A stretch of 45,137 nucleotides of DNA from Escherichia phage vB_Eco_Sem3. Positions 1-45,137 of the stretch are shown one piece after another. The notes under the pieces were generated by a model. It ran no database searches. It worked only from the letters and a program-made list of their open reading frames with translations, and was not told the DNA's origin. The stretch lies in sequence record PV775410.1; one strand, written 5' to 3'. Position 1 is the stretch's first letter. Each line of letters starts with the position of its first letter. Both the position numbers and the translations under genes were made by a program.

Positions 1-114
1 ACCTGGTTCTTTAATTGCGCTTCGAAAGTCGAGTTTACATTACGGCCTAGATGGTGCTGATCACAGGTCCTTCGGACGTAAATCTTCAAATGGCACGGCT
101 CCTAGCCAGCACCA

Positions 115-415
115 ATAGCCCACGCCCTCCCACCCTGTCAAACGCTCAGGAATGGCCCTGAATAGCCTCAGGAATGCACTAAGCGGCTTCACTAAGGCAA
201 TCACCTTGTCCACCACTAAGCCATCCCTAGGCCGTCCTAGGCGCTCTCCAGCGTTCCACCTTGCTAGTACATGAGCAAAGACTAGGCTGTACCAGCTAAC
301 TAGTACGGCCTGCCCTTGTGTACTACTAAGCTAGTACAAGGAGTACATCAGCCCTGCCCCGTCGAAGACGGATTTCCTCAGGCCACCCTATGGGGGCAAC
401 CCGGCGAGGGCGAGG
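115..415. repeat. Direct terminal repeat, copy A (301 bp, identical to 44829-45129)
   Basis: Read directly: agcccacgccctcccaccctg...ccggcgagggcgagg is identical at both ends of the window; contains four ACTAAG motifs. 113 bp of unique sequence lies outside it (1-114). Confidence 0.9.
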
Positions 416-468
416 GCGAGAGAGCTGACACACGCCTACATCAAAATTTTGACTTTGTTACCTGAATG

Positions 469-843
469 TTACAGGTCTACTGGAAGCCATACCTTCTTCT
501 GCCCTTGGGTTACACTAAGAGAAGACCTATCATAGTCACGTGAATACTTGAGATTGTACTCTTCAGTACACCACTCTAAGTTGTCTACATGATTATGTGC
601 CTTGTCTTCATCCTTGTGGTTCACTAAGGGAAGATTATGAGGATTAGGCAAATGACACAGTGCAACCAAGCGATGCACACGGAATGTCTTCTTGCCTTCC
701 TCGTTACTAAGAACTACGTTCAAATACCCACTCTTTGACTTGCCCGGCTTCAGTATCTTGTGATTACCAATGAGCGATTTGACACGTCCATGAGTAGACA
801 CTTGATACCGTGGGTAGCCGGGAACAGTTACCCACGTTTCCAT
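469..843 (-). CDS. HNH homing endonuclease (124 aa)
   Basis: HNH motif ...LVNHKDEDKAHNHVDNLEW... and N-terminal YPRYQVSTHGRVKS (NUMOD-like); RBS AAGGAG upstream of ATG. Confidence 0.8.
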   Translation of the reverse strand: METWVTVPGYPRYQVSTHGRVKSLIGNHKILKPGKSKSGYLNVVLSNEEGKKTFRVHRLVALCHLPNPHNLPLVNHKDEDKAHNHVDNLEWCTEEYNLKYSRDYDRSSLSVTQGQKKVWLPVDL

Positions 844-853
844 ATCAATCTCC

Positions 854-997
854 TTAAGATGCAGAAGGTTTCTTCATGGCACGACGTTGTACATCCTTGG
901 CAATGGCATAAGCTTGCTTAGGGTCACGTCCTGATTGAATAAGCTCTTCTGTGTTCTGGCGTACAGCACTTTGCTTAACTGATTTGATTAATGGCAT
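854..997 (-). CDS. Hypothetical small basic protein (47 aa, MPLIKSVKQSAVRQNTEELIQ...)
   Basis: Hand-called ORF below the track size cutoff; RBS AGGAAG upstream; sits between tailspike 2 and the HNH gene. Confidence 0.35.
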   Translation of the reverse strand: MPLIKSVKQSAVRQNTEELIQSGRDPKQAYAIAKDVQRRAMKKPSAS

Positions 998-1008
998 TCA
1001 ACTTCCTA

Positions 1009-2721
1009 CTACTTTGCAACCCAACCTTGAGCAGATGTACCAGATTCTTTAACGTACAATGTACTACCACCAGAACCATTGATATCAGTTGCTAAAGAGC
1101 CTACAGGTGCACCTACGCCTAAAGTTGTAGGGTTGCCATTTAGTCCATAAACAATCACCGTACTAGAACCAACTCCTTGGTTATTCTGAGGCGCCTGTGT
1201 GCCATAGCAATCATTGCCAATGAGTTTAATATTGGAACAAGAAGAAGTAACACGAATACCAAGGCTTGGCTTGTTAGGGCTTTCTCCGTCTACTCCAATA
1301 TTACCTTCTACTAGGATGTTGTTAGCCCCTGTGTCTATACTAATGAAGTGCCTACCTGCTTCAGCTGTAGATACTTCCTTCATATTATTGGCTTTAATCA
1401 CTAGACCGCTAGCCTTGCAGTTTACATGAATACCATATTGCCCTAATTTAGAGAAGATATTACGACTAAGTATACCTCCTCCTGATAAACCAGTACCAAT
1501 GAATGTAGTAGCATCAGACTCACCTAACCAAATCCCACTACCTCTACCGTTTTCCCAAGTATTACCTTCGATGTGGTATTTTGTCCCAAAGCGTAAACCG
1601 ATTAACCCTAAGCCACCAGAGCCTGTATTACCTTTTACAATTAAATTCTTACACCACCTTGCATCTACACCATAGGATACATCCTCTGTGAGGATCATAG
1701 TATTATTAGAAATTTCAATATGGTCATGCCAAATGTCACTAATATCAGTAAAAGGCCAAGATGGTGCAGCAATTAGAACTGGTGTCCTTACGCCATCAAA
1801 AGTGCAATCTACAATACTACCTTGTCGAGTACCCTGCGGTTTAGTCTGAGATGAGACAGGTGTAACATGGACACCTCTTGCATTAGAGTTCCTAAATGTG
1901 CAACCACGCACTGTCCAGTTTTTCCAGTTAAATACACGGACACCTGCAAAGAGAGCACCATCTGTAGTGCAATTCAAGATACGGATATTGTTGTCCTGTA
2001 CACCGTAAGCTGAGGCGTGATTTCCAATCAGTGCACCATAACCTCCAAACCCTGATTCTGTGTTTGGACCAGCATAGCAATTCTCCACCAGCATACCACT
2101 TGACTGTACATAGTGACCAACTGTAATAAGACCTGGGTCTAACTGTATAGCCTCTGAGAAGTTACGACTGCCTGTATTCTTAAAACCTAGGAATTTGCAA
2201 TCACGAATAACTACGTTGTTCCAATCTGCTAAATCTATGGCGTGGTAGTCCACTACATTGTTAACTGTTATGCCTTCAAACTTCAAATCATTATTACTAG
2301 TAGATGCAAATACTACAAAAGGTGTATCTCCCTTAGTGTGACCATTGCCTTCATAGATACCTCCACTGACTGTTACATTACTAGCTTGCCCTTGTGATAA
2401 TCTGAATAACGTATCTCCTGTTTCGTAGTCACGTACAAATGTTACACCTTTAGCAACCTTGAAGTGTGTATTAGCAAATATCTCAACAGTACCACTGAGT
2501 TTGTATTTTCCAGCTTTAGTGACTAATACAGTGCCACCGCCTAACACTCTGACTGCATTGAACGCAGCTTGAAGTGCTTGCCTGTTGTCATTGGAAGATG
2601 GAGTAACTCCAAAATCCGCAACATCTATTGTATCCGATAGTTTATCAGATAGCAGGCGCTCAATAGTACCTGTTAGTTTACTCTTGTACTTCACCAAGTA
2701 AGCACTTAATCTTTGAAGCAT
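1009..2721 (-). CDS. Tailspike protein 2, putative capsule/polysaccharide depolymerase (right-handed beta-helix)
   Basis: 570 aa; repetitive Gly/Asn/Thr/Val-rich beta-helix-like sequence (…NNVVDYHAIDLADWNNVVIRDCKF…); short N-terminal anchor region; RBS GAGGAGG; position matches the second tailspike of SP6/K1-5-type phages. Confidence 0.7.
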   Translation of the reverse strand: MLQRLSAYLVKYKSKLTGTIERLLSDKLSDTIDVADFGVTPSSNDNRQALQAAFNAVRVLGGGTVLVTKAGKYKLSGTVEIFANTHFKVAKGVTFVRDYETGDTLFRLSQGQASNVTVSGGIYEGNGHTKGDTPFVVFASTSNNDLKFEGITVNNVVDYHAIDLADWNNVVIRDCKFLGFKNTGSRNFSEAIQLDPGLITVGHYVQSSGMLVENCYAGPNTESGFGGYGALIGNHASAYGVQDNNIRILNCTTDGALFAGVRVFNWKNWTVRGCTFRNSNARGVHVTPVSSQTKPQGTRQGSIVDCTFDGVRTPVLIAAPSWPFTDISDIWHDHIEISNNTMILTEDVSYGVDARWCKNLIVKGNTGSGGLGLIGLRFGTKYHIEGNTWENGRGSGIWLGESDATTFIGTGLSGGGILSRNIFSKLGQYGIHVNCKASGLVIKANNMKEVSTAEAGRHFISIDTGANNILVEGNIGVDGESPNKPSLGIRVTSSCSNIKLIGNDCYGTQAPQNNQGVGSSTVIVYGLNGNPTTLGVGAPVGSLATDINGSGGSTLYVKESGTSAQGWVAK

Positions 2722-2806
2722 GTAACCTCCTCTTCTGAAAGGCTACCACCATGATAACCTTTAAGAAAAGTTGCGTGAAAAGCAGTGCTTACGCACTGCC
2801 TGTCTC

Positions 2807-4705
2807 TCACTTAGGCAGGGAAGCTAGTGCTTCCTGCATACGCTTGATAGTCCTACGCATCAACGCAGCCTCTAATATCAGTACTTCCTCGTAACGAATA
2901 CCGTAGCGGGAACCTGCTGGTGTAATCAGTTTACGAGAGCCATTGGCATCTTCCTCGTATACATCATCCCAACTGTCGAAGCACAAGAAGCCATAGCGGT
3001 GTGCATCTATGCCGTGACGTTCGAAAGCCTCCTTAGCTCGCTGAGCGATGATACCGAAGTGCCATCTAGCTGAGTCTGCACCCTTCTCCTCAACACGATC
3101 CAAATACTGAAACTGCACAAAGTCAACTTCAGACCAAGCATCCAGTAAGGCATCTGATATAGTAAGAGGTTCTGTTTTACACCGAGCATCTGAGGTGACA
3201 GTGAATGCTGCTTGAGTAAAACCGCCAGACCATGCCCGACTGGCGGAACCTAATGCATATGTACCAGTACTATCTGGGGTCATTGCATCAGCACCTAACT
3301 GCAAAAAGCCTGTGCTACTGGTAGAAAGACGCACGTTACCGTTGGTGAGGGACACTGTCCGAGAAGTACCATCAGAAGTAAATAGGCGAACTTGAGAAGA
3401 AGTGCCCCCACCTACAGCTAATGACACAGCACCATCTCCAAGCATTCTGTACTTATCAGCAGAAGTAAGAACACCTGAAGGGAGTGACATGGACTTAATC
3501 CGCCATTCGAACCTACCTGACATACTACCTATGTACTGCCCTAAGGCAGGTGCGTGCACTACGTTACTATTATTAGTGCCGTCAATAGTAGCTGCACCGT
3601 CAATAGTACTAGCAGAACTGAGAATGTCGTTTCTCCTGCCAGGGTGCTTTACCTCTACGAAGTTACGGGTAGAGCCGGATTCGAAAGTAATAACACCTGT
3701 AGCACTGTAGCTAGGAAATACAGACGCATAGTTGTTATTAGCTGTACCTATAAAGCGTGCAATTGTAGCAGTCTGCCCTTGTCCTAAAGAGTTAGTACCA
3801 TCACATCCTGACATAAGCACATTATTTATGACGTTATCAGATCCCTCTACGGTAACACCATGAGCCTGCCTAGCATCAGAAGTTGAGTAATCTACGAGCA
3901 CGTCTGATATTAAGTTCGTACTTCCTTTGCCTGCAACAACCGCTGCATACTTAGGGTTATTAGCCATCACCCCACTGATAAGGTTATTAGAAGGAGCTAT
4001 TGGCCCTTCAGTGCCGTTGTAAGTTACATGCTGGCAATCTGCCCCTATAACATTACTGACTATGTTGTAACTGGCTGTACCTTTCAACTCTACTGCTCCG
4101 AACTGAGGGTAGTTCTTAGCAATGACGTTATCTATGAGGGAGTTAACTGAGGAGTCAGCAAGTACGCATCCGGCTGCCTTATTAGTAGCATAGCCTGAAT
4201 AGCTACCTCGAATACCTTTAATCATAAGCCCCTCAGGTGGCGCATCATTAGGGTATGCGATTAAACTGAAACCAGTACCTTTAACGTTTGAGAAGTTAAC
4301 GTCACTTACAGTAACATCACTTCCACCAGCAAGAGATACCTGCTGTCCCTGAGTTGTATCAGTCGCCTTATTACTTTCTACCGTAATATTACTTAAGCGA
4401 CCTGCACGTAGATTGTTAAATACTAAGTAGTTACCTGTACTGGAACGGTGACTTAGCACGCCACTACCCCTACCGTCTAAGTTACAGTAATTACTATTAA
4501 TACCAGAGCTAGAGAATACACCATCTGAGACTGTGACAGCTTTCTGAGAGTTTAATGAAGCAGCTATAACCTCCGTATCATCAGTAGTGGCGTCACCTGC
4601 AGCACCAAACGGCTTTGATGTTAAAACTCTCGCATCAAGGTACTCATACAAAGATTGTCCTTTATGCAAGATTCCTTCAGTATTAGGTTTGGTTAATTTA
4701 GCCAT
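2807..4705 (-). CDS. Tailspike protein 1 with C-terminal intramolecular chaperone (peptidase S74-type autoprocessing) domain
   Basis: Start at MAKLTKP (RBS GGAG; track ORF extends 20 codons further upstream). Beta-helix-like body; C-terminus …SDARCKTEPLTISDALLDAWSEVDFVQFQYLDR…FGIIAQRAKEAFERHGID…GFLCFDSWDD resembles the autocleaving chaperone domain of endosialidase-type tailspikes. Confidence 0.8.
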   Translation of the reverse strand: MAKLTKPNTEGILHKGQSLYEYLDARVLTSKPFGAAGDATTDDTEVIAASLNSQKAVTVSDGVFSSSGINSNYCNLDGRGSGVLSHRSSTGNYLVFNNLRAGRLSNITVESNKATDTTQGQQVSLAGGSDVTVSDVNFSNVKGTGFSLIAYPNDAPPEGLMIKGIRGSYSGYATNKAAGCVLADSSVNSLIDNVIAKNYPQFGAVELKGTASYNIVSNVIGADCQHVTYNGTEGPIAPSNNLISGVMANNPKYAAVVAGKGSTNLISDVLVDYSTSDARQAHGVTVEGSDNVINNVLMSGCDGTNSLGQGQTATIARFIGTANNNYASVFPSYSATGVITFESGSTRNFVEVKHPGRRNDILSSASTIDGAATIDGTNNSNVVHAPALGQYIGSMSGRFEWRIKSMSLPSGVLTSADKYRMLGDGAVSLAVGGGTSSQVRLFTSDGTSRTVSLTNGNVRLSTSSTGFLQLGADAMTPDSTGTYALGSASRAWSGGFTQAAFTVTSDARCKTEPLTISDALLDAWSEVDFVQFQYLDRVEEKGADSARWHFGIIAQRAKEAFERHGIDAHRYGFLCFDSWDDVYEEDANGSRKLITPAGSRYGIRYEEVLILEAALMRRTIKRMQEALASLPK

Positions 4706-4784
4706 GCTATCTCCTATTACTTTCCAACCCTCCCTATGAAGATTGGCTAGTAATAGGCCGCTCAAAAGAACGGCGCTATCTTAT

Positions 4785-6453: not shown

Positions 6454-6476
6454 CCTTCTATAGTGTCCAGTAATTA
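6454..6476 (-). promoter_or_regulatory. Phage RNAP promoter (TAATTACTGG variant) overlapping the terminase large subunit stop codon
   Basis: Minus strand reads TAATTACTGGACACTATAGAAGG. Confidence 0.6.
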
Positions 6477-8372
6477 ATAAGTCCTTGAAATCCTTGCAGA
6501 AAGTGTATTTCTGCTTGCCGATTTATTTCGGTAGTTCTGCCCGTAAACTCGCTGCTGCATCGCTACGGAAGTGTTGGTCACTCTTCGCTCAGTACCGTAA
6601 TCCCCATATAGCATTGCCCTGCGTAGATGAGGTGTGTTCATAGCATGGATGTAATCTCGCATCTCCTGCGCTCTGAGGCGATTAATCCGTGTAACCTCGT
6701 CATAGTCTATCTGAGAAGTTAATTGCCGTATAGCGCCATACAGGGCGTCTAGGCGGTCATCGTGCCGGAGGCTGTTCTTCTCAATCGTTATGTTCGACAT
6801 TTGATTGAAAAGACTGTAGGACATGCGTAGTTCAAGCGGATAGTGCTGTACCGACTCAAAGTCTGACTTCACCATCTCTGCATTGAAGATAAGCCTATGT
6901 GCTGCCATGAGCGGCTCCAGCGTCTCAATGATACGCAATTCTTTCTGTCCGGTGGCGTAATCTTCTTCCAGAGTTACAGGCCACTCTCGTTCAAAGTACG
7001 GCTTAATTACCGCCTCAAACGCGCCATGACCAAAGTTCTTCTCAATGAATACCTCTTTAACACCCGCCTGCTTTGCGGCCTGCACAATGCGATTCAGGGA
7101 CGACTCTCGGTATCCGCCAGGTACACCAAAGCACTGATACACATAAATGAATGTGCCGTGCAGGAATACGATGGCTACACCCGTCTCATCTCCGTTCTTA
7201 CCACCACCTGCAGGGTCAATATACATAATCTTGCGGGAGACAGCACCCCATTCGTATGGGCGAGCTACAGGTCTGTACATGAAATCCGTAGGCTTGTTAC
7301 CATACTTAGGTGCATCACCAATTATGTTTATGGAATCATTACTCCACGTAGGCATCACAGGGACTTCCTCTGTACCAAACGAGGTGAAGATTAGATTGTT
7401 CAGGCGTAATGGGTATCTGTCAGCATCCATCATGCGAGTGTTAAGCATGAACTGAAGCTGGAACTTAGCAGCACCCTGAGAGATTTCCTTCTCAATCAGG
7501 ACTTCATCATCATACATTTCAGGGGCACAAGGTGCACCACTATTACCATCCAACCCGTACCCTGAGCGAAGTGCGGGGTTGTCCTTCATATCTTGAACAA
7601 TCATAGGTGCAAGGAAGTCGCCATAACATTGCTCTTGCTCTACTGAAGGGTAACGCGCAGTCCAGATACGAACAGAGTAACCACGAGCAGGTAGGTTGTT
7701 GTAGATAGAGTTTACGTTCTGAGGTGTACCAAGGTAAATGATATCTCCAAACTGGTTGATAGATTCAAACTCCTTAGTCAGTTCCTCAAGCAAGGCACGG
7801 CCCGCTGCCGTACGAGCATTCTGCATCGACTCTACGTCATCCGCTAGAATAATATCAGCACGAGCACCCTGCATACCTGCTTCGATTGAGTAACAGGATA
7901 CAGAAGGAGACTTATCACTACCACGTAGGGTGTAATGAATCTCAAACGCCTTAACGGATGCACGGTCCCCAGCGTAGATATCCGGCAGCATAAACTCAAG
8001 AAAGTCTAAGCCACGGAAGATTTTAACTACCCAACCTGCGATTTCCTCTGCTCGCTTGGCGTTTTGGGACACAACCATGATACGCTTATGCGGTTCATGA
8101 ATAATACGGAAGACCGTATAGATTGCTGATAGTGTTGTCTTAGCGATACCACGAGGCGCTTCGATGAGGCGGTACTTGTGTCCGTAAAATAGGAACTTCA
8201 AGATATCAGCCTGCATACGAATCAGATGAGGGTTGCCTGCAATTAAGTTATGAATAACTGTATCTGCAAAGAGAAGCAAACCTTCCGCTGTGTAAGGAAA
8301 GGTCTGCTGTAACTCCTGTAGCATCTCCCATCTGGCAAGAGCCTCCGCTTGTGATTCTCTTGCCTTAGCCAT
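6474..8372 (-). CDS. terL: Terminase large subunit
   Basis: About 632 aa; ATPase plus nuclease architecture typical of T7 gp19-like terminases; RBS AAGGAGGA; located after the small terminase gene. Confidence 0.85.
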   Translation of the reverse strand: MAKARESQAEALARWEMLQELQQTFPYTAEGLLLFADTVIHNLIAGNPHLIRMQADILKFLFYGHKYRLIEAPRGIAKTTLSAIYTVFRIIHEPHKRIMVVSQNAKRAEEIAGWVVKIFRGLDFLEFMLPDIYAGDRASVKAFEIHYTLRGSDKSPSVSCYSIEAGMQGARADIILADDVESMQNARTAAGRALLEELTKEFESINQFGDIIYLGTPQNVNSIYNNLPARGYSVRIWTARYPSVEQEQCYGDFLAPMIVQDMKDNPALRSGYGLDGNSGAPCAPEMYDDEVLIEKEISQGAAKFQLQFMLNTRMMDADRYPLRLNNLIFTSFGTEEVPVMPTWSNDSINIIGDAPKYGNKPTDFMYRPVARPYEWGAVSRKIMYIDPAGGGKNGDETGVAIVFLHGTFIYVYQCFGVPGGYRESSLNRIVQAAKQAGVKEVFIEKNFGHGAFEAVIKPYFEREWPVTLEEDYATGQKELRIIETLEPLMAAHRLIFNAEMVKSDFESVQHYPLELRMSYSLFNQMSNITIEKNSLRHDDRLDALYGAIRQLTSQIDYDEVTRINRLRAQEMRDYIHAMNTPHLRRAMLYGDYGTERRVTNTSVAMQQRVYGQNYRNKSASRNTLSARISRTY

Positions 8373-8671
8373 CAATCCTCCTTAGTGAATTGAATTATCT
8401 TACCACTGGATGCCTCTCGGATAGCCTTGAGGCGCTTAGATAACTTGGACTCTTCCTGCTGTGCAGCAGGTGTGGCGGTAATGCCGTTATCAAGAACCCA
8501 CTTACACATCGCACCAATATCCTTACCAGACACTAAATGTAATGCTGCATCAGGGTCTTCTTCTATAGTGTCCAGTATTGCCTGTGCTTTCTTATTGAAG
8601 ATTTTGGTAATAGCACCATGCAGAATGCCAACCTCATCCTCTGTAGCTGCATGTTTATTGTGTACGCTCAC
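8372..8671 (-). CDS. terS: Terminase small subunit (99 aa, GTG start)
   Basis: RBS GGAGGGAG 6 nt before GTG, immediately after the holin stop; position equivalent to T7 gene 18. Assigned by position and size, not by motif. Confidence 0.5.
   Translation of the reverse strand: MSVHNKHAATEDEVGILHGAITKIFNKKAQAILDTIEEDPDAALHLVSGKDIGAMCKWVLDNGITATPAAQQEESKLSKRLKAIREASSGKIIQFTKED
8557..8580 (-). promoter_or_regulatory. Promoter-like sequence inside the small terminase gene
   Basis: Minus strand reads CAATACTGGACACTATAGAAGAAG: 17-nt core conserved, upstream AT-rich part divergent. Confidence 0.4.
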
Positions 8672-8849
8672 GCTTCTCCCTCCAAATCTTGAACTTATTA
8701 TAAAACCAGTCCCCAATTTGCAACACGGTATAAATGAATGTTGCTATTAACACCCAATTATCCCAACTGATACCGAGGAAGTACCCACCTGATACGAGTG
8801 CAGGTGGCGCAAGCTTCACACCACTATCTACCAGTTCGGAGTTAATCAT
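8655..8849 (-). CDS. Holin (T7 gp17.5-like)
   Basis: 64 aa; …WDNWVLIATFIYTVLQIGDWFYNKFKIWREKRE resembles the T7 holin segment NEWFYVAAIAYTVVQIGAKVVDKMIDWKK; RBS AAGGAGG; directly precedes terS as in T7. Confidence 0.7.
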   Translation of the reverse strand: MINSELVDSGVKLAPPALVSGGYFLGISWDNWVLIATFIYTVLQIGDWFYNKFKIWREKRERTQ

Positions 8850-8858: not shown

Positions 8859-9821
8859 TTATGCTGTGATAATCTTAGCAGTCATCCGGCATTCTGGCAC
8901 TCCCTCTGAGAAAGTAACAATGTCACCGTCTACCTGATAAGCAAGTTTAGGTTGTAATAATCCATCAAGGTAGACCTCAATGTACTTAAATGCAGAGCCA
9001 ATCTGTACTACTTGTTGGCCTTCTGCTAAGTCAAAGTTCAACTCTAACTGAATATTAGGTTCAGATGTAGCCACACGACTACCAATCAGCACATACACCT
9101 CTGTACCCGCCACAAGCGGCTCTGCGAAAGTGATAGTGTTGTTGCTTATAGAGTATGCGCCTACAATTTGGTGCTGCAACACCCCATTAAGGAAAACTAG
9201 TGCATCTTGAAATTCATAAGGTGGTTTTACGGAAATCTCACCACCTTGGGCTATCGTGTACCAAGGAACAGTTCTGTGCGCAATACCAGAAGTCATACCA
9301 GCCTTAAGGCCAGCAATCTCAATGTCCTGTTTGGCGTTCCAATCTGTATGCTTCTTGTCGATGGCATCAAGCTGCCCTTTATTTACTGCATCTCCCGGAT
9401 TTGTGCCATCAGCCAAATCAGTAATCTTATTGCCGCCCCAGCTTACATCCTGTTTAATGAAGTATCCTTCTGGATAAAACCCGTCAAGTAACTCCTGTGT
9501 AATCTCCAGTATATGAATGAAAGAACCATTTAAAGACTTCATATCCAAGGTAACACCACGGTCAAACTCAGCGTATGGATACTCCTTTTGTACTTCCCTT
9601 CTAATACGGAACTTCAAACCTGCAACTGGTGCTACATCAAAAGTAATCTGGTGCGTGCCAGTTAGTTGCCAGCCAGATGTAACCTCAATCCAAGTGTTAC
9701 CTTGAAGAGACTCCACTATCACATCTGAGGCACGAAGATAACCTTTATCCCTACCAGCAAAGCTAAAGGGATAGGTTACTTGCGTACCGTTGGCTATATG
9801 TTCTGTGAAAGTATAACTCAT
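8859..9821 (-). CDS. Tail fiber / tailspike adaptor protein (T7 gp17 N-terminal domain-like)
   Basis: 320 aa; N-terminus MSYTFTEHIANGTQVTYPFSFAGRDKGYLRASDV…; too short to be a receptor-binding fibre, consistent with the adaptor that carries tailspikes in SP6/K1-5-type phages. Confidence 0.7.
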   Translation of the reverse strand: MSYTFTEHIANGTQVTYPFSFAGRDKGYLRASDVIVESLQGNTWIEVTSGWQLTGTHQITFDVAPVAGLKFRIRREVQKEYPYAEFDRGVTLDMKSLNGSFIHILEITQELLDGFYPEGYFIKQDVSWGGNKITDLADGTNPGDAVNKGQLDAIDKKHTDWNAKQDIEIAGLKAGMTSGIAHRTVPWYTIAQGGEISVKPPYEFQDALVFLNGVLQHQIVGAYSISNNTITFAEPLVAGTEVYVLIGSRVATSEPNIQLELNFDLAEGQQVVQIGSAFKYIEVYLDGLLQPKLAYQVDGDIVTFSEGVPECRMTAKIITA

Positions 9822-12121
9822 CAATCCTCCAGTTCATCTAAGCCATAACGCAATGCGTTCTGGATTCCTATTACATTAGCTAGAGGCACTAAGCGTAAAG
9901 CCCTACGTGCCACATCTACACCTTCTGTATCACCCTCTGCGTATTTAGTTATAGAATCTGCTAAACGATATGCATCTTGACCAACACCTACTAGTGGTAT
10001 TTGGTCTATCAAACCCTTAGTCTGAAAGCCAGCCTCATAACGGGATTGTACTAACTCAGAAGGTAGAACACCTAGGCCACCTAAGAAATCTCCACCTAGA
10101 CTAAATACAGCAGTTGTACTCATCATACCCATTGCACCAAAGGCCAACCCTTTAGGCGATAACTTCTCTTCCAAATATTCATCTTGGTCTTCTCGACCAA
10201 TAGAGTTCACATAGGCTTTTGCCGCATACACTATTGAACCCAAAGCAAAACCATAAGCTGTCTTCTTAGCAAGACCAATTTTATCGTGGCGAATCCCTCG
10301 ACCAAATTGCTTCTCACCAGATACAAGAGAGAATGACTTAAGCTGTGCAAATGTCTTACCTAGTGCTTTGTTCATCCAGATACCTTCATCACCAATGAAA
10401 TTACGTTGGATAATTAGACCTGACTTACGACGAATAGCATTAGCTAAAGTTTCACCCATGGCATAAGGCATTGTATCAAAGCCAAGCAAGCCAGAACCTT
10501 TAGAGTTAGCATCATAGTGCTTCTGTAGGTTAGTCATGAACTCCTGAGTAAGACCAAGTTCCTCCAGTTTCTTCTGAGGAATAATCTTCTTGCCTTCAAG
10601 GTGGTCAATGAAAGACAAAGCTATTTGCCTATTGGTCATTCGCTCCAGAGAACCCTGTGCCATGCGGAAGAGGGATAGGTTTGTCTGAGCACGTCGTATA
10701 GAGTTCATGGACTGGTCAAAATGGGCCATCATACCTCGCACTGTGGTTACATCACCAAACTCATCGGGACGCGCACCCTTAGTTGTCAGCCAGTTGTCTT
10801 CACCAATGTAACCTACCATTCGCTCAACCTCAGCTAAATTCTTATCTCGAAAGAAGCCATCGCCATTACGCAACGCCTTAGAGGTGAAGCGGAATTGCTT
10901 ACCTAAAGCCATAGTGGTGGCAGCAATACCAAACTCACCCATGAAGTTAGCAAGTTCACCTAGCTGTGCGAAGCCCATCTGACCTAAGCGAAGTACACCT
11001 GTAATGTCACGCCCACGACGCAGCATTTTAGTAGACAAATCTTGTGGGTTTGAATCGATAGATTTACCCATAATCAAGCGAAGCCCTTCTCGCATCTGAC
11101 GGATTTCTTCATCAATAGCCAGACCAGCTGCTTCATCTTTCTCTTTCAATTTAAGTCGCTTCTTTAACTCTTCAATCTTCTCTTGTGCCTTCTTGTAATC
11201 AGGCTCTGATTGACGGATCTTAGCCGACTCCGCTTCAAATTGTGCGTGTGCTTTTGTATCTTTAGCTGCATTTCGTGCATTTCGCTCTACAAGATCAATT
11301 GCATTAAGTGCAGCCTGATAGGTAGAGAAACCTTGACGAGCCAAGGCAGCACCACCTGCCGCTTCCTTCATGTAGTTATCTGTTAACTCTTCCACGTTAG
11401 TGTTCATAAAGTCACGCATACGAATGCCATTGTACTCTTGAGTAACATCTAAGCCTAAACTCATCTTAGCTCGGTTAGAGATATTATCTCTGGTTTCTTT
11501 ATTATCCAGAGCTTCTACCATCTTTTCAATCTCTTCATCACTAAAGCCTGCTTTGCGCATTAGTGCTTCATATTCTGCTTTGGTTTGACCAGACATAGCC
11601 TTTTCAAAGCTAAGCTGTCCGGTCAGGGTGGCATCAGCAACGCGGTTTACTTGTGCTCGTGCAATATCATCAGCCACTTCCTTTGGAACCTTACGAGAAC
11701 CATTCTGGTATGCACGAGAGAATAACTCAATGATGTCCTCTTTATCGTGCATACTGAATTGACGACGAGCCTTCATACTATCAAAAATATCAGGCATGTA
11801 CTTATCATCTGCTTTAACCTTTTCAAACCCAGATTCACCAGAGCGTTGACGTAATGCTAATGCTTCACGATACATAGCTTGCTGCCCCTCTGCTGCCATA
11901 CGGATAGACTTAGGCGTAGACTCATCCATACCGATGCGTACAGCTTCCCATACCTTCTCATTATATTGCTGCACATAGTGAGAGTTAGTATGACCTGCAA
12001 CCGGGTTGATATTATTCTCTTTGAGCCATAAATCGAACCCATCATTGAAACGATTCATATCAGCAGATTTCAGACGGTTCAAGTTAGTATTCTGCATGAG
12101 ACTAGCAGATGCTTTCTGCAT
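9821..12121 (-). CDS. Internal virion (ejectosome/core) protein, 766 aa
   Basis: Large protein in the T7 gp15/gp16 position; assigned by synteny and size. Confidence 0.6.
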   Translation of the reverse strand: MQKASASLMQNTNLNRLKSADMNRFNDGFDLWLKENNINPVAGHTNSHYVQQYNEKVWEAVRIGMDESTPKSIRMAAEGQQAMYREALALRQRSGESGFEKVKADDKYMPDIFDSMKARRQFSMHDKEDIIELFSRAYQNGSRKVPKEVADDIARAQVNRVADATLTGQLSFEKAMSGQTKAEYEALMRKAGFSDEEIEKMVEALDNKETRDNISNRAKMSLGLDVTQEYNGIRMRDFMNTNVEELTDNYMKEAAGGAALARQGFSTYQAALNAIDLVERNARNAAKDTKAHAQFEAESAKIRQSEPDYKKAQEKIEELKKRLKLKEKDEAAGLAIDEEIRQMREGLRLIMGKSIDSNPQDLSTKMLRRGRDITGVLRLGQMGFAQLGELANFMGEFGIAATTMALGKQFRFTSKALRNGDGFFRDKNLAEVERMVGYIGEDNWLTTKGARPDEFGDVTTVRGMMAHFDQSMNSIRRAQTNLSLFRMAQGSLERMTNRQIALSFIDHLEGKKIIPQKKLEELGLTQEFMTNLQKHYDANSKGSGLLGFDTMPYAMGETLANAIRRKSGLIIQRNFIGDEGIWMNKALGKTFAQLKSFSLVSGEKQFGRGIRHDKIGLAKKTAYGFALGSIVYAAKAYVNSIGREDQDEYLEEKLSPKGLAFGAMGMMSTTAVFSLGGDFLGGLGVLPSELVQSRYEAGFQTKGLIDQIPLVGVGQDAYRLADSITKYAEGDTEGVDVARRALRLVPLANVIGIQNALRYGLDELED

Positions 12122-12123: not shown

Positions 12124-13128
12124 CTAAGCCTTGGGGGACTCAAACAGGCGAGCACCAAGGCCGCGTACACTTGCATCCTGAGAGGAATGTACGACAGTAC
12201 CAAGGGCAGACAGAGTTCCGGCCCAGCGGCGAGGGGCCATATCAATTGCATTACCTTCCCGCTGTAGGGTTTTCAGCAAATCTTCACCTTTGCTAGAGAT
12301 ATCAAATGCACCCTCAGTGAGTACCTCTTCACCCTTAACACGCATCGCACCGATACTATCATCAGCAACAGCACGCACATAGCGGTCCCCTGCGTCTGCA
12401 CTGCGCACAATACTCGCAGCCCTGTCATCTCCTTGCTCACTGAGCTTAGTGGCCCTACCACGCGCTACAGCTCCAATAACGCCACCCATAGCCATACCGG
12501 AGCCTAGTGCTACCATAATGTCATCTAAATCACGAGTCATGTCACCTTGGACCAATATGGATTCAATAGCGGCATTACTTACGCCAGCGGCGATAGCGCC
12601 ACGCACAGCACGGCCTACGAGTCCAACTTTAGCGGCACCACCGGTTGGAATAGAGGCAACCCATCCCACAGGGTCAAGCACAGCAGCGCCAATCGTCGCC
12701 ACAGAGCCAACCCAGCCAGCCTGAGCAATGCGCTTATTGCGCTCAAGGTCTTCATCAGCATTCTGAATACGGAAGTTCAATTCATCCTCAGAACGAACAC
12801 CCTCAGTGATTGTCTGCATCATATCTGTACCATATTTGAAACGTAGTGCTTCACGTTGCTCAGGTTGTATCTCGAAGTCTGGTTGAGGTGTGAAATCAGC
12901 AGTGGCACGGTCATACCACCGCTTGCCTCCAAATGCCAACCACTCATTCTGGAAGGCAGCACCTACAGCACCTAAGATATCAGCATCAGCTTTAGCTTCA
13001 AGAACTTGCTCTTGTAACTCATTACGCTGGCGTATCGTAGGAGCCGATACCGGAGCCGCCTCAATAGAAAACGGCTCAGGAGTAGACTGGACATATCCAG
13101 CCCAATTAGTCTTAATGTCTTGTTCCAT
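12124..13128 (-). CDS. Internal virion protein, 334 aa (Ala/Gly-rich hydrophobic core)
   Basis: RBS GGAGGAA; may be the N-terminal part of a split gp16-like protein together with 9821-12121. Confidence 0.5.
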   Translation of the reverse strand: MEQDIKTNWAGYVQSTPEPFSIEAAPVSAPTIRQRNELQEQVLEAKADADILGAVGAAFQNEWLAFGGKRWYDRATADFTPQPDFEIQPEQREALRFKYGTDMMQTITEGVRSEDELNFRIQNADEDLERNKRIAQAGWVGSVATIGAAVLDPVGWVASIPTGGAAKVGLVGRAVRGAIAAGVSNAAIESILVQGDMTRDLDDIMVALGSGMAMGGVIGAVARGRATKLSEQGDDRAASIVRSADAGDRYVRAVADDSIGAMRVKGEEVLTEGAFDISSKGEDLLKTLQREGNAIDMAPRRWAGTLSALGTVVHSSQDASVRGLGARLFESPKA

Positions 13129-13159
13129 AATTCCTCCATAGTGCCTATCATAAAGACCT

Positions 13160-13175
13160 GTCTCACATGTGAGAC
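13160..13175. repeat. Perfect 16-bp palindrome GTCTCACATGTGAGAC (intergenic hairpin element, copy 1)
   Basis: Read directly; flanked by CCT/AGG extensions; followed on the transcribed strand by TCTTTAT. Confidence 0.8.
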
Positions 13176-13192
13176 AAGCCTTGAGTTAGATA

Positions 13193-34852: not shown

Positions 34853-34953
34853 CCTCCCTCCTTTCTGGTTTAGGTTGCATTGAATCTTGGAAATCCCAAT
34901 CAGAATCATAATCACGTGGCATAATGCACCTCCAATCAACATGATAAAAGGCT

Positions 34954-34969
34954 GTCTCACACGTGAGAC
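34954..34969. repeat. Palindromic hairpin element GTCTCACACGTGAGAC (copy 3)
   Basis: Read directly; followed on the transcribed strand by CCTTTTAT. Confidence 0.75.
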
Positions 34970-34979
34970 AACCCTTGAC

Positions 34980-35156
34980 TTATCGACTGCGAATCTTACG
35001 TTTCACTTCACTTTCCTTGATAACCTGTTCACGAGTGAGACTATTCTTCTTGGCCTCAGCCATAGTTAACTGTGCGAACAGAAAGGCTTGGTTAGTAATC
35101 TTGGCTTGCAGGTCTTCATGACCATCGAACATTTTAAGACTATGTTTATTCTGCAT
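34980..35156 (-). CDS. Hypothetical protein, 58 aa (MQNKHSLKMFDGHEDLQAKITNQ…)
   Basis: Hand-called ORF below the track cutoff; overlaps the upstream gene stop. Confidence 0.35.
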   Translation of the reverse strand: MQNKHSLKMFDGHEDLQAKITNQAFLFAQLTMAEAKKNSLTREQVIKESEVKRKIRSR

Positions 35157-36064: not shown

Positions 36065-36097
36065 TCTCCAGTTATTTAATGTACTTAATAAGAGCCT

Positions 36098-36113
36098 GTC
36101 TCACATGTGAGAC
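36098..36113. repeat. Perfect palindrome GTCTCACATGTGAGAC (copy 4) with CCT/AGG extension
   Basis: Read directly; followed on the transcribed strand by GGCTCTTATT. Confidence 0.8.
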
Positions 36114-36130
36114 AAGCCCTGATAAATACA

Positions 36131-36292
36131 CTAGATAAGGCGTGTTACAATAAAGAACATTGACATCATAAAACCAGATGCAACGATAAGTTTCACTGCT
36201 TTCTTGAAGCCATATCGTGCAGCATAATCTGCGATCACAAGCATGAATAGGATCTCAATACCGATATTCAATACTGGTTTAATAATTTCCAT
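36131..36292 (-). CDS. Small hydrophobic protein, 53 aa (MEIIKPVLNIGIEILFMLVIADYAARYGF…)
   Basis: Hand-called; ATG overlaps the primase/helicase stop (TAATG). Confidence 0.4.
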   Translation of the reverse strand: MEIIKPVLNIGIEILFMLVIADYAARYGFKKAVKLIVASGFMMSMFFIVTRLI

Positions 36293-38955: not shown

Positions 38956-41583
38956 TTATGCGAAGCAATAGTCAGATACTAAGATTTCGTTAAGGTCAAA
39001 TTCTCCTTGCTCTGGCACTTGGATTCCGGTGTCTACTAACCAGCGTTCTTCATGCTCATCTAACAGGCTTTGCAGGGCATTACGACCTTGATACATCTTC
39101 ACCATTTCTGCCCTTAAGCTATCCCGCAGGTCTGCTGTACGGCCTGCATGAGTACCAAAGGAATCATGGATGACTGCAATAGAGGTAATACCTTTATCCA
39201 CTAAAGCACACACCGTTAGAATCAGGTGGCTAGCATCATGACCATGCACGAAGTTAGGAGCAGCCGCACCCATCATGGCTGTTTCATCCACTACATCAGT
39301 CTCAATCTGTAGACTCATCTTGATTTCACCCATCAAGCAAGTGGATACGCGTAGCATGTCGGTAGCCATTATCTTTTGTTGCAAGATGAAACCAGTAGGT
39401 AAGGTGTACTCTAGCCCTTCGTTTCTTTTAGCTGCGAAGCGTGCAAGCTGGCGAATCATTTTCATCGCCACTATAGGAGCTTTAACAACCTCAGAGATAG
39501 AAGGCCAGATTAAAGCTGTCATATAGTTATAAGCTGCGCTAGGTGTCAGGCTGTCCTTACGGTCATTATCAAAAGGGTGTACAGGATTGGCGGTACGCCC
39601 TTCCGCAATAGCTCGTTGGGCCTCTTTTTCTTCCAAATCAACGATATAATCAATCACTGATTCACGGCAGGTTAGACGTGTGCTGCCATAAGGTAGTGTC
39701 ATTACGGGCTTTTTGGTCAATCCGCGAGTGATTCCTATCATATCCCACGCATTAGCCATGCTACGCAGTTCTGCACCTGTAAGTGTGACGCTCCCAGATG
39801 TGAAAGTCACTGCATCGTCTGCATTCATGTAGGCGTAATTCTTCTGGATAACAACCTGCGCAACCGCGCCATAAATATCTTGAGGGAAGTCAGAAGGCTT
39901 AAGGTTTACTGCTTTCGCACCTACTTCATCGCGTAACATCGCGCTATAGTGCTGGATACCAGAGCAACTACCGTCTTGATGGACGGGTAGATGCGTCATG
40001 AATTGGTCTTGCGTGCCTTCATCCAGTGCATCCAGATAACGCGCATATTCAAAGCACCATGCAAGGAAGCCGTAAGGGGAATCAGCATTTACCCATTGAG
40101 TGAAGGTCAGCGGATCGGCTGCAATGTCGCGGCACATGTCTTGAAATTCGCCATCCAGCACGTTAGAGGTGCGCACGTCAAAAGTTTTCTTATCCCAACC
40201 CCAGTTATTCGCCCCGTTCACCAAAAACCACTTAAGCGCCTCAGCGCTATCAAGACGCTGCCCTTCGGTAAAACGGAGCAATGCCTTGCCTAAGTCGTTT
40301 GATTGCGGCGAGAGCGTGCTAGATTGCGCATAAACGCGTGAACGGCTATCCAGTGCATATACAAAATAAATCGCGTCAAACTGGCTGTATTTACGGGCCT
40401 GTCCTACCATGCGGACGGTCGCCGCCGACTTGCTGCCGCGCTTAGTCTCAGCGGTATACAGCTTAGTACATTCACCCTTCCAGTTGATGAAGGCCTGCCA
40501 TTGCTCCGGTGTTAGCATCTCTTTCAATTCACGGCCTCGCAGGTGCTGGAACTCTAACGGCACTGGATTAGCTGGCTTGTTCTCACGGTCGATGAGTGGT
40601 TTAAAGGAAGGCACACCATAACCAAGGTCGAGACGGATAACGTCCTCTACTACCTGCAAAACCTCTTTATTAACCTGCCACTTAGTCGCCTGCAAAGCGT
40701 TAACAGCCTTGTAAACCGCTGGCATTTGCTTTTTGGTCAGCTTGCGGACGTGCTCGCGGTTTCCTTTAACCAGACGAATACGACTCGCCACCTTCTCGGT
40801 ATGGAAGCCACCATTAAACGGAGAAACCCACGGACGAGGAGGAATAACGCAAGGCGCATAGGCTGGACTCAGCTGAGCTACGTGCTCTTTAAATGCAGTT
40901 ATCCATTCACCCACATGTTCGCTAGTCTGTAAGTAGTAAACGCCATGCTTGCCACCATTAGTGCGCAAGGTGCGAAGAAAGACAGGCTGACCATTGAAGA
41001 ATACACTATTTTCCAGTATTTCTAGCAAGGTCATACCTATTTGTAGCAAGGTATCTTTAGGCCACGCCTCCCAGCGAGAGAAATCAGCGTCACGGTCAGC
41101 CACTGACTTCTCAGCCACGACCGCTACGTTGTGCGCATGGCGATATGATTTAGTCTTACTTGCCTTAAGTGACTTCTTAACTTTCTCAAAGTATTTGGCG
41201 GCGTGACCTTCCAGCTTGCTAAAACGTACTTGGTCCTCAATGCGGTCAGCTACATTCATGGCTATAGCCTGCAAGGTTACATCCGTGTTCAGCATATCCA
41301 TAACGATTTTCATCGTGATATATGCTGCCACTTCGTTTTCTACGCAGTTAATGAAAGCTAATGCACGCGGTGCACGGCCTCTTTTACCTTCATACTCTTC
41401 CTTGTATGCCTGAATACCTTCAGCCATTGGCGCGATTAACTCGGACAATAAGCGGCGATTCCAGGCCGTGTCTGATTCATTACCGGATGCAATCTGGCGT
41501 TGTTGGTCCGCTTCAAAGCGACGGATACCGCCGTTAAACATTTCTTCTTCAAGTTGAAGTTGAATAGCGTGTAGGTCTTGCAT
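38956..41583 (-). CDS. Single-subunit DNA-dependent RNA polymerase, SP6-type
   Basis: 875 aa; N-terminus [31 protein letters not shown]… and catalytic motifs (…[15 protein letters not shown]…, …VHDSFGTHA…) match SP6 RNAP as I recall it; RBS AGGAG. Confidence 0.95.
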
Positions 41584-43408: not shown

Positions 43409-43759
43409 GTTGTTAATCCTCATTTAGTTAGTTAGGTTACATTATAGGAGACTCAAGAGAATCCCCTAGGTTTAACCTATCCAGACTAAGAAGCTTCTAT
43501 CCAAATTGTTAAAGAGCGTGGCTTGTGCCTTGATAGGCTGACTAGTGCCAGCCTTTACTTTAAATCAGTGAGAAACAGCCATACCACTCTTTGAAGCTAG
43601 ATTGGTTTTCCAGTGGTAATATTTCAAGTTTACCATTGACCATACGTTCTACACAAATTAAACCTTTCATGATAATTACCTTAGTTAGTTAGCCTATCAA
43701 GACACAAACCGTATTGTTAAAGAGCGGGATGTTTAAAGACGTCGCCGTCTTGATGCTTA

Positions 43760-43795: not shown

Positions 43796-44005
43796 TTAAA
43801 CTTTATTGCTATTTACTTCTTCCCACTCCAAGGAGTGTTGATTCAGGCTGTTAATCACTCGTTTGTGAGATAACTTGCTTTCAAACTGAAGATAAAACAT
43901 CTCAGTACCATCGTTGAGGTTGTACGTCTGACATTCTGCCTTGTACAAATCGCAGATAGCTTTAGCCGATTTATTGCAATCCGTGTAAATCTCATGTTTA
44001 AACAT
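43796..44005 (-). CDS. Early hypothetical protein, 69 aa
   Basis: RBS AAGGAG; ATG overlaps the stop of the upstream ORF. Confidence 0.55.
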   Translation of the reverse strand: MFKHEIYTDCNKSAKAICDLYKAECQTYNLNDGTEMFYLQFESKLSHKRVINSLNQHSLEWEEVNSNKV

Positions 44006-44174
44006 TGGTTAGCTCCTTCATCAGGTCACGTTTCTGGTTAACTGTATCGGTCCAACCTTCGTTCAGAAAGCGGTGATACAAGGCTAACTCGTCATCTGTA
44101 AGCAATTCGTTGTTACGAATCATGTAGCATAGCAGAGTAAAGATAGCGGACAGTTCACGGTTAGTTAGAGTCAT
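43998..44174 (-). CDS. Early hypothetical protein, 58 aa (MTLTNRELSAIFTLLCYMIRNNELLTDDELALYHRFLNEGW…)
   Basis: Hand-called; RBS GGAGG; ATGA overlap with the upstream ORF. Confidence 0.5.
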   Translation of the reverse strand: MTLTNRELSAIFTLLCYMIRNNELLTDDELALYHRFLNEGWTDTVNQKRDLMKELTNV

Positions 44175-44270
44175 GATAAAGCCTCCACAAACTCAGCATA
44201 AGACAAAGGCTCTTCTCCTCTCACTAATGCGTTATAGTAATAGGCTTTATACAGTTTTTCGTAATTCATA
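44172..44270 (-). CDS. Early hypothetical peptide, 32 aa (MNYEKLYKAYYYNALVRGEEPLSYAEFVEALS)
   Basis: Hand-called; RBS GAGGAA; first ORF downstream of promoter P1. Confidence 0.35.
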
Positions 44271-44390
44271 GCTAATTCCTCATTCAATAAGTAATTAACC
44301 ACGGCATACATAGGTTACACTAAGCAAATTGTTAAAGAGCAAGGTAACTTAGTTACCTACCGTTTGGCTATGTTGCCTCCCGATGACTGT

Positions 44391-44419
44391 AATGTACTAC
44401 CAGCTATTACCTATGTCAA
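44391..44419 (-). promoter_or_regulatory. Putative host sigma70 early promoter P1 (TTGACA-N17-TACATT)
   Basis: Minus strand reads TTGACAtaggtaatagctggtagTACATT; followed by a perfect palindrome GGTAACTAAGTTACC and the GCTCTTTAACAAT box. Confidence 0.5.
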
Positions 44420-44486
44420 CACTAAATTTCACTAAGATAGATTATTTATGTGATACATGTCACAACTACTAAGGTAAACCTAGGTT

Positions 44487-44502
44487 GTCTAACATGTGAG
44501 AC
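44487..44502. repeat. Imperfect copy of the intergenic palindrome (GTCTAACATGTGAGAC, copy 7)
   Basis: Read directly; one mismatch to the perfect palindrome; lies between the ACTAAG repeat array and promoter P1. Confidence 0.6.
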
Positions 44503-44647
44503 TAAGGAAGAGCAACAGATACAGAGCTAGGATAGGCTAGGTTGGCTAGGTTTCTGGTGTTCCTCCTACTGCATCTTATTACTATTCTCTTCTTTAGCGG
44601 TCTACCGACCGCGACCTAATGGCATCTTACATGCTTGCATGTGCAAT

Positions 44648-44787
44648 CACTAAGAGAAGACACTAAGACTTACTAAGGTACACTACTAAGCTATTACTAA
44701 GATAAGCACTAAGGCTTTAACTAGGGTAGTCCACTAAGGTTAACCTAAGCTATCCATCAAGTAATAGCATAAGGTAGTAACTAAGGT
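44648..44787. repeat. Array of short ACTAAG(G) repeats next to the terminal repeat
   Basis: At least eight copies of (C/T)ACTAAG(G) at irregular 10-25 bp spacing; four more inside the terminal repeat itself. Confidence 0.6.
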
Positions 44788-45137
44788 ACACGTCAGGCTT
44801 GTGAGTGGAGCGCTAGCGAAACGAACAGATAGCCCACGCCCTCCCACCCTGTCAAACGCTCAGGAATGGCCCTGAATAGCCTCAGGAATGCACTAAGCGG
44901 CTTCACTAAGGCAATCACCTTGTCCACCACTAAGCCATCCCTAGGCCGTCCTAGGCGCTCTCCAGCGTTCCACCTTGCTAGTACATGAGCAAAGACTAGG
45001 CTGTACCAGCTAACTAGTACGGCCTGCCCTTGTGTACTACTAAGCTAGTACAAGGAGTACATCAGCCCTGCCCCGTCGAAGACGGATTTCCTCAGGCCAC
45101 CCTATGGGGGCAACCCGGCGAGGGCGAGGAAGCAGAG

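Follow-up and report, generated by a model that had tools for sequence, protein, structure and literature searches.

A T7-type concatemer-junction layout at the termini of the Vectrevirus phage vB_Eco_Sem3

Genome organization and close relatives

We analysed the whole 45,137-nucleotide stretch recorded for Escherichia phage vB_Eco_Sem3 (PV775410.1), hereafter the window. Judged by its sequence, the window is a complete Vectrevirus genome (SP6/K1-5/K1E group, podophages of the T7 supergroup) in a linear assembly, and it is oriented as the reverse complement of the usual Vectrevirus map. High genome-wide identity and a collinear gene map place it in this group. With 25 kb compared, the nucleotide identity was 100.0% to vB_Eco_Sem1 (PV717788), 99.9% to vB_Ka_Sem4 (PV775411) and 99.9% to vB_Eco_Sem2 (PV775413). 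VEc3 matched at 96.6% identity over 95% of the 25-kb query and other Vectrevirus records at 94-96%, and the terminal regions of the window aligned with K1E and K1-5.

Sem1, Sem2 and Sem4, which are Escherichia/Klebsiella phages, have the repeat sequence and an HNH insertion in common with the window, and Sem4 is also recorded in the identical orientation. The sole difference from the window is how the ends were assembled. The Sem1 record is permuted, with a single repeat copy in 44711 bp; the Sem2 record reaches no further than the right terminus (window 117) and misses about 800 bp at the left end; and the Sem4 record holds both repeat copies, with non-phage tips unlike those of the window. 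We also found that these assemblies carry independent homopolymer indels, at different sites, which break one shared essential gene; this adds to the case for the tips being artefacts. A homopolymer error is likely in the internal virion protein gene, at about 12132.

The gene content is that of a T7-type phage, with the genes all on one strand. The large terminase subunit (T7 gp19 type) is encoded at 6474..8375 on the minus strand (Pfam PF22530, T7 terminase RNaseH-like domain, E = 1.6e-35), next to the small terminase or DNA packaging protein (T7 gp18 type) at 8372..8716, minus strand (PF11123, E = 5e-16). A single-subunit RNA polymerase of the T7/SP6 type lies at 38956..41583, minus strand (PF00940, E = 2.3e-89; PF14700, E = 1.5e-31), and is accompanied by its own promoters: 12 SP6-type promoters matching TTCTATAGTGTCCNGTAAAT were found, all in one orientation. 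Portal, DNA polymerase and primase-helicase of T7 type were also found by Pfam. Reading the window as an integrated prophage, with host DNA flanking att repeats, was rejected, as no integrase is annotated in VEc3 (96.6% identical) and the flank matched no bacterial genome, plasmid or metagenome in the collections searched.

An ORF for a homing endonuclease of the NUMOD4/HNH type (469..843, minus strand; Pfam NUMOD4, E = 1.3e-11) separates the tailspike genes from the right-end repeat and is annotated as an HNH homing endonuclease in Sem1, Sem2 and Sem4. VEc3 differs here: most of 469..843 is unaligned, and a small unrelated ORF is annotated at that position.

Direct terminal repeats and their edges

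The initial annotation had reported identical repeats at 115-415 and 44829-45129, and the two segments do match over 301 nt at 100% identity; no leftward extension is possible, and the match stops rightward at 415/45129. Their start-to-start spacing of 44714 fits the 44711-bp single-copy record of Sem1. As had been proposed, the two segments are direct terminal repeats (DTRs), here those of a phage in the T7 supergroup, and they exceed the 160 bp of T7. The length (301 nt exact, 305 bp by homology) falls within the approximately 150-450 bp of identical direct repeat expected at both linear genome ends in this supergroup, and it is normal for the SP6/K1-5/K1E group. Exact repeats span 174-304 bp in SP6, K1-5, K1E, mutPK1A2, RoP3a and VEc3, the length varying through internal insertions and deletions, and the 305 bp of the window are close to the 304 bp of VEc3. 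Repeats of 266 and 428 bp are known in other SP6-like phages (PMC6563267).

These six phages (Molineuxvirinae), whose records hold both repeat copies, served as references for the termini. All six start with (TCT)CTCGCCCTCGCCCTCGCCGG and end with ...GGGCTA; their ends (...GGGCTA) and starts ((TCT)CTCGCCCTCGCC) map to window positions 116 and 420. From these termini, the biological repeat appears to be 116-420, with a length of 305 bp. The single repeat copy of Sem1 is the exact reverse complement of 116-420. Since the reference start positions vary by 1-4 nt between records, the left terminus is placed only to within a few bases.

The copy at the conventional right genome end (116..420, minus strand, 305 bp) is placed by the six references, by Sem1 and by the end of the Sem2 record, and the predicted physical terminus, ...GTGGGCTA, corresponds to 116-123 read on the opposite strand. 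The copy at the conventional left genome end (44830..45129, minus strand) holds 300 of the 305 bp; its final 5 nt, GCGAG (equivalent to 416-420), are absent, with 8 unrelated nt in their place. Sem4 retains all three GGCGAG units at its left-end repeat copy. Base 115 (A) equals 44829 by chance and lies outside the 305-bp repeat. The earlier suggestion that the true repeat has diverged edges was thus right in that the edges are 116-420 and not 115-415, but the missing GCGAG is an assembly defect and not biological divergence.

The termini of the six references run as in the window, starting with CTCGCCCTCGCCCTCGCCGG... and ending with ...TTGACAGGGTG...GGGCTA. The same six phages share with the window an ATCTGTT boundary, a CTTAGT array and a 37-nt element before the right repeat. 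This conserved element adjoins the right-end repeat at 421..457 (minus strand; CAAAGTCAAAATTTTGATGTAGGCGTGTGTCAGCTCT on the conventional strand) and is near-identical in SP6, K1-5, K1E, VEc3, mutPK1A2 and IMG/VR contigs, and more diverged in RoP3a and L031. The terminal repeat itself is an already known feature, and nothing new was learned about terminal repeats.

A class II pause motif at the repeat boundary

ATCTGTT, the core of the class II (T7-type) RNA polymerase pause and termination signal, was found at 44824..44830 on the minus strand. The motif lies across the inner edge of the repeat copy at the left end, in the context GGGCT-ATCTGTT-CGTTT, which by sequence places a class II signal at the inner edge of the repeat. 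ATCTGTT occupies this position in the window, in all six references and in 22 of the 25 relatives (the stored DNA of the other three stops short), and GGGCT-ATCTGTT is kept in every relative whose sequence covers the position. Published work describes the class II signal and a polymerase pause which initiates packaging at the concatemer junction (bioRxiv 10.1101/2021.01.11.426313; PMC3276506), and the motif is defined as in the bioRxiv paper.

One-strand hexamer arrays inside and beside the repeat

Clusters of ACTAAG in and beside the repeat had been noted initially, and we found this clustering to be strongly enriched and strand-specific. The genome holds 60 copies compared to 31.3 +/- 5.7 in shuffled sequences, and 0 of 100 shuffles reached 60. 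On the plus strand, 12 copies lie in 44301-44829 (0.21 expected, P = 1.4e-17), 4 in each repeat copy (0.12 expected, P ~ 8e-6) and 3 in 421-1008 (0.24 expected, P = 0.002), these last being the copies at 514, 623 and 706 within the homing endonuclease ORF. Across these terminal regions, the opposite strand has a single ACTAAG. Among all hexamers, ACTAAG was the most enriched in the terminal regions (16 copies, 0.34 expected, P = 1.4e-21).

The densest cluster, at 44649..44785 on the plus strand, packs 8 ACTAAG hexamers (CTTAGT when read on the conventional strand) into a tight array, with starts at 44649, 44662, 44672, 44685, 44696, 44708, 44733 and 44780, with a spacing of 10-13 bp (mean 11.9). 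In all 25 relatives, the hexamers are invariant and the spacers variable, and each relative has 9-18 copies of CTTAGT versus 0-1 on the other strand. Four further ACTAAG, at 44319, 44431, 44468 and 44501 (44319..44506, plus strand), lie among early host-type promoters and are kept in most aligned relatives. The first strong sigma-70-type early promoter (TTGACA-17-TACATT; 44391..44419, minus strand) is downstream of the repeat, the array and a highly conserved non-coding block. Alignments place this block at 44460..44648 (minus strand), between the array and the promoter. It contains two hairpins, hairpin 1 at 44629-44642 and hairpin 2 at 44597-44612, and hairpin 1 shows compensatory changes at three base pairs.

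Taken together, these data indicate that the ACTAAG array is under clear selection. Its proposed role as a packaging or concatemer-processing signal is plausible by analogy. We regard the ACTAAG/CTTAGT hexamers as candidate sites for a junction-acting protein, most likely one of packaging or processing, an assignment to which we give somewhat less than an even chance. More tentatively still, the CTTAGT array and the hairpin block 44460-44648 may form an uncharacterised cis-acting module of the SP6 group, a platform for the small terminase or another junction-processing protein. If so, the module would mark the left end of the genome for packaging and for duplication of the repeat, and the function of the T7 short-repeat arrays would become open to experiment.

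Alternatively, the hexamers could be operator-like sites for an early transcription regulator, or serve in entry or replication at the leading genome end, and not be packaging signals, which we consider rather unlikely. Several copies abut or separate sigma-70-type early promoters, with CTTAGT or TTTAGT directly upstream of TTGACA and next to -35 boxes; the densest array would, by analogy with T7, lie at the end that enters the cell first; and no mapped phage promoter or known pac element lies in this region. However, copies are also present within the repeat and ahead of its right-end copy, at sites remote from any early promoter, and the analogous arrays of T7 too flank both sides of the concatemer junction. 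The strict single orientation across the junction also fits a one-way process. It is very improbable that the clusters are neutral, functionless remnants of tandem duplication: they do lie in repetitive non-coding DNA, but the hexamers stay invariant where the spacers diverge (SP6, K1-5, the window phage and 19 IMG/VR contigs), and their orientation is uniform in every relative compared.

Sequence outside the repeats

Beyond the predicted physical genome ends, the window carries a left tip at 1..115, of which bases 1-114 are unique, and an 8-nt tip (AAGCAGAG) at 45130..45137, beyond the left physical end of the conventional map. The unique flank reported before the left copy is present, though it counts 114 nt and not 113, with 8 nt beyond the right copy. 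Every phage match to the left end of the window begins at 115-117. The 8-nt tip is unlike the internal copy (GCGAGAGA...) and unlike the 74-nt tip of Sem4; at the two corresponding junctions, the Sem4 tips measure 112 and 74 nt and are unrelated to those of the window. Sem1 has neither tip, and its single repeat copy sits between two unique genome ends.

We found no match to 1-114 in phage, plasmid and E. coli collections, and four 23-24-mers from this tip were absent from genome, metagenome and viral collections. The tip also showed no relation to the remainder of the window, and it resembled neither host-type DNA nor the sequencing adapters compared to any significant degree. Bases 1-115 and 45130-45137 are evidently an assembly artefact and not phage DNA. 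The assembler attached these tips past the ends of the virion DNA, and therefore the tips mark those ends; they do so exactly, and in agreement with the relatives. The source record needs trimming at 1-115 and 45130-45137, and the final 5 nt of the left-end repeat copy are to be restored.

As one of two options, the initial annotation had proposed a window excised from a concatemer or circularised assembly, and it had noted weak residual similarity of the flanks. The similarity did not hold, as the 114 nt outside the left copy and the 114 nt preceding the right copy are 30% identical without gaps, and their local alignment score was reached or exceeded in 477 of 500 shuffles. If the window came from a concatemer, or if the assembly was circularised or permuted, the outer left sequence would be genuine phage DNA of the neighbouring unit; the repeat spacing of 44714 equals one genome unit, and the deposited Sem1 record is itself permuted, with a single copy. 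But 1-114 should then equal 44715-44828, from which it differs at the chance level given above. It is found nowhere else in the window, nor in Sem1 or any related phage, and Sem4 carries a different sequence at that junction. Since 1-115 and 45130-45137 are non-phage, the window was not cut from a concatemer, and we consider this origin highly improbable. The chance is close to nil that 1-114 was joined to the phage in vivo, as the host flank of a prophage (with the 301-bp repeats as att-like sites) or as Mu-like terminal host DNA: unique sequence does lie outside a direct repeat and the tips do vary between isolates, but the genes are arranged as in a strictly lytic T7-type phage, neither integrase nor repressor is annotated in VEc3 at 96.6% identity, the repeat edges are the record ends of SP6, K1-5 and K1E, the right tip is just 8 nt, and the tip was found in no bacterial genome, plasmid or metagenome of the collections searched.

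A model for the genome ends

We consider it very probable that the ends of the window reflect the normal repeat of the group at both ends, tips added by the assembler, and T7-type processing of the junction. By homology to T7, replication would join genomes head to tail into concatemers that hold a single repeat copy at each junction, and the phage RNA polymerase would cross the junction and pause at ATCTGTT on the repeat boundary. The gp18/gp19-type terminase (8372-8716, 6474-8375) would then cut at the pause site and package the DNA. The repeat would be duplicated, leaving a copy at both ends of each virion DNA.

Comparison with the T7 concatemer junction

T7 and the window have several features in common. 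Both have a short exact repeat with ATCTGTT at its inner boundary (in T7 at nt 161, directly after the 160-bp repeat), a CCCCATAGGG palindrome near the left terminus, and a gp18/gp19-type terminase. The repeat of the window is almost twice the 160 bp of T7, and counterparts of the T7 phiOL/phiOR promoters next to the repeat are absent from the window.

The short-repeat arrays are laid out in a similar way. T7 has CCTAAAG, always on the same strand, three times in the repeat, eight times after the left repeat and twice before the right repeat; these arrays were reportedly named SRL and SRR by Dunn and Studier in 1983. The window has ACTAAG four times in the repeat, eight times tightly spaced inside the left end and three times before the right repeat, also on one strand. 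As in a T7-type array, the motif keeps to one orientation, is present within the repeat as well as to either side, and is densest just inside the left repeat. However, where T7 has the heptamer CCTAAAG on its top strand, the conventional top strand of the window carries the hexamer CTTAGT, which resembles the T7 motif only when read on the opposite strand. The arrays of the window are thus an analogue of the T7 CCTAAAG arrays and not the same element. The T7 junction layout (repeat, ATCTGTT and one-strand short-repeat array) is kept in the distant SP6 group with another motif, and this supports a real function for the short-repeat arrays.

Phage identity and genome organization

All long open reading frames (ORFs) and twelve SP6-type promoters in the window lie on the minus strand, indicating that the sequence is the reverse complement of the usual T7-supergroup map, with the conventional left end at the right of the window. 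By Pfam, the large and small terminase subunits are both of the T7 type, and further matches are to a portal, a single-subunit RNA polymerase, a family-A DNA polymerase and a primase-helicase. Over 25 kb, identity was 100.0% to vB_Eco_Sem1, 99.9% to both vB_Ka_Sem4 and vB_Eco_Sem2, and 96.6% to the Vectrevirus VEc3. The phage is a known member of the K1E/K1-5/SP6 group.

Two tailspike-type genes were found at 1009-2721 and 2807-4765, one with a beta-helix domain and the other with a Peptidase_S74 chaperone domain, which agrees with the dual-tailspike layout known from K1-5-like phages. Between them and the repeat at the conventional right end lies a NUMOD4/HNH homing endonuclease ORF (469-843). 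Most of this interval is unaligned in VEc3, where a small unrelated ORF is annotated at the same position. A 46-nt element occurs three times (13150-13195, 34944-34989, 36088-36133), each copy containing the palindrome GTCTCACATGTGAGAC; a possible role is as hairpins for RNA processing or termination between blocks of genes.

Terminal repeat and physical ends

The 301-nt direct repeat reported in the initial annotation is exact (115-415 and 44829-45129), leaving 114 nt beyond the left copy and 8 nt beyond the right copy. To map the termini, we used six relatives whose records hold both repeat copies, with exact repeats of 174 bp (SP6), 234 bp (K1-5), 288 bp (K1E), 304 bp (VEc3), 286 bp (mutPK1A2) and 283 bp (RoP3a). 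The ends of SP6 and K1-5, at least, have been established by experiment. All six records end in ...GTGGGCTA and all six start with (TCT)CTCGCCCTCGCCCTCGCCGG, at positions corresponding to window 116 and window 420. Thus, the biological repeat spans 116-420 (305 bp), essentially the same length as that of VEc3, and the match of base 115 to base 44829 is due to chance. The right-hand copy is 5 nt short, having two GGCGAG units instead of three, followed by 8 unrelated bases. The expected physical termini are ...TAGCCC (window 116) and ...GGCGAGGGCGAGGGCGAG (about 45134).

Three sister assemblies confirmed the termini at 116 and 420. The Sem1 record is permuted: between the two unique genome ends it carries a single 305-bp copy that matches the reverse complement of 116-420 exactly. 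The Sem2 record ends at window 117. Sem4 holds both repeat copies, like the window, but its tips at the same two junctions, 112 and 74 nt long, differ from those of the window and are unrelated to them. Within the group, repeats run from 174 to 304 bp in the six records used here, and lengths of 266 and 428 bp are reported for other SP6-like phages (PMC6563267); the window repeat falls inside the group range and is an ordinary terminal repeat of a known phage.

Two short sequences within the repeat are candidate terminase recognition or cutting sites. The palindrome CCCCATAGGG (386-395 and 45100-45109) is near the left terminus of the conventional map and is also present in T7 (nt 27-36). The other, TTGACAGGGTG (131-141 and 44845-44855), is near the right terminus and is kept in all six of the reference phages, SP6 carrying a single substitution. 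A sigma-70 promoter formed by TTGACAGGGTG...CTATCT at the repeat edge was rejected, having too poor a -10 box and being unflagged by the promoter scan.

Sequence outside the repeats and assembly errors

The sequence outside the repeats is best read as debris attached by the assembler at the physical DNA ends, for example from chimeric reads or untrimmed library sequence. No phage match reached into 1-114 by megablast or blastn. Against phages, plasmids and E. coli genomes, the same searches gave only a 31-nt chance match (E = 1), and four separate 23-24-mers of the tip had no exact match in genome, metagenome or viral contigs. The tip also had no match in Rfam, and the translation of its single open frame is not protein-like. 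The left tip of Sem4, whose host is Klebsiella aerogenes, had no match in E. coli genomes.

By eye, the tips resembled nanopore adapter and barcode flanks, but alignments to these gave no significant score against shuffled controls, and no sequence is common to the three tips; the adapter reading was dropped. The initial annotation had proposed, citing residual similarity between the flanks, either that the window was cut from a concatemer or circularised assembly or that the true repeat has diverged edges. We found 30% identity between the sequences before the left and right copies, with a local score below the shuffle mean, as expected by chance. Since bases 1-114 have no counterpart in the window, phages, E. 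coli or plasmids, and resemble the flank of the right copy only at chance level, the window does not derive from a concatemer. Rearranged phage DNA was rejected, as forward, reverse-complement, fold-back and reversed comparisons found no similarity to the tip elsewhere in the window. The odd flanks are assembly artefacts coinciding with the true termini.

Homopolymer changes show that the assemblies are error-prone beyond their tips. Over a 3.6-kb stretch, the window and Sem4 differ solely by two homopolymer-length changes, both disrupting one internal virion protein gene (minus strand; Gp16/internal core protein in Sem4), with the break in Sem4 lying elsewhere than that in the window; the gene is intact in VEc3. 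In the window, a 1-nt deletion at 12128-12137 (G5 versus G6 in Sem4 and VEc3) splits the gene into ORFs 9821-12121 and 12124-13128, and Sem4 has its own deletion at 11626. These deletions are likely sequencing errors rather than biology.

Conserved elements and the junction signal near the ends

The flank of the right copy, ...gaaacgaacagat, reads GGGCT-ATCTGTT-CGTTTC on the coding strand. The class II signal at which T7-type RNA polymerases pause or terminate has ATCTGTT as its strictly conserved core, and the concatemer junction of T7 is a natural site of this signal (bioRxiv 10.1101/2021.01.11.426313; bioRxiv 10.64898/2026.02.12.705533). In the T7 sequence we located ATCTGTT at nt 161, immediately after the 160-bp repeat. 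The window and 22 of 25 relatives have it at the same repeat boundary, the sequence of the other three stopping short of this position. The last phage promoter (4788-4807) is aimed at the right-end repeat with no strong terminator in between, so that in concatemers the phage RNA polymerase would reach the junction. The coding strand of the whole genome has only one other ATCTGTT (44514-44520), about 300 bp inside the conventional left end; this copy is shared with VEc3 and reads ATCTATT in most relatives.

A 37-nt element (421-457; coding strand CAAAGTCAAAATTTTGATGTAGGCGTGTGTCAGCTCT) adjoins the right-end repeat, with almost the same sequence from SP6 through K1-5 and in the majority of IMG/VR relatives. 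The hexamer array is separated from the first strong early promoter by a non-coding block of very high conservation (44460-44648), which had no match in Rfam. One hairpin in this block (44629-44642) has the variants ACATGC-AA-GCATGT, ATAGCT-AA-AGCTAT and ATAGC-TAC-GCTAT, with three compensatory pairs; another (44597-44612) reads GCGGTC-GGTA-GACCGC and is followed by CCTAGCC-type repeats. The block may act as a packaging signal, as an origin or in regulation. Downstream of early promoters are three copies of a repeat ending in ATTGTTAAAGAGCG (43483-43518, 43691-43726, 44306-44341; coding strand CGCTCTTTAACAAT), one of which comes after a terminator-like hairpin (44342-44358).

The hexamer array and its T7 counterpart

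The clustering of ACTAAG in and beside the repeat, noted in the initial annotation, reflects a real and strand-specific enrichment. There are eight tightly spaced copies at 44649-44785, four more among the early promoters, four in each repeat copy and three in 421-1008. The last three (P about 0.002) all fall within the HNH ORF (469-843), on its non-coding strand and in mixed reading frames. The same array, CTTAGT on the coding strand, is present in SP6, K1-5, K1E, VEc3, mutPK1A2, RoP3a and 19 IMG/VR contigs, with 9-18 copies in each of these 25 relatives versus 0-1 on the opposite strand. Motif text searches, whose scope did not include the SP6 genome paper (Dobbins et al. 2004), returned unrelated papers and no earlier account of it.

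Across the relatives, the hexamers are invariant and the spacers variable, with a regular spacing of 10-13 bp (mean 11.9). This pattern points to a putative protein-binding array and rules out neutral duplication as its origin. We tentatively favour a role for the array in junction processing or packaging. Control of the early promoters is a live alternative, since some copies adjoin -35 boxes.

Nothing in the repeat, flanks or micro-repeats is new in kind; the micro-repeats, conserved across the family, have a parallel in T7. There, CCTAAAG shows the same layout on one strand, with three copies in the repeat, eight just after the left repeat and two before the right repeat; we take these arrays to be the SRL and SRR of Dunn and Studier 1983. 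The motif sequence differs between T7 and the SP6 group, and the strand relative to the map is opposite. The SP6-group motif is an analogue of the T7 element rather than the identical element.
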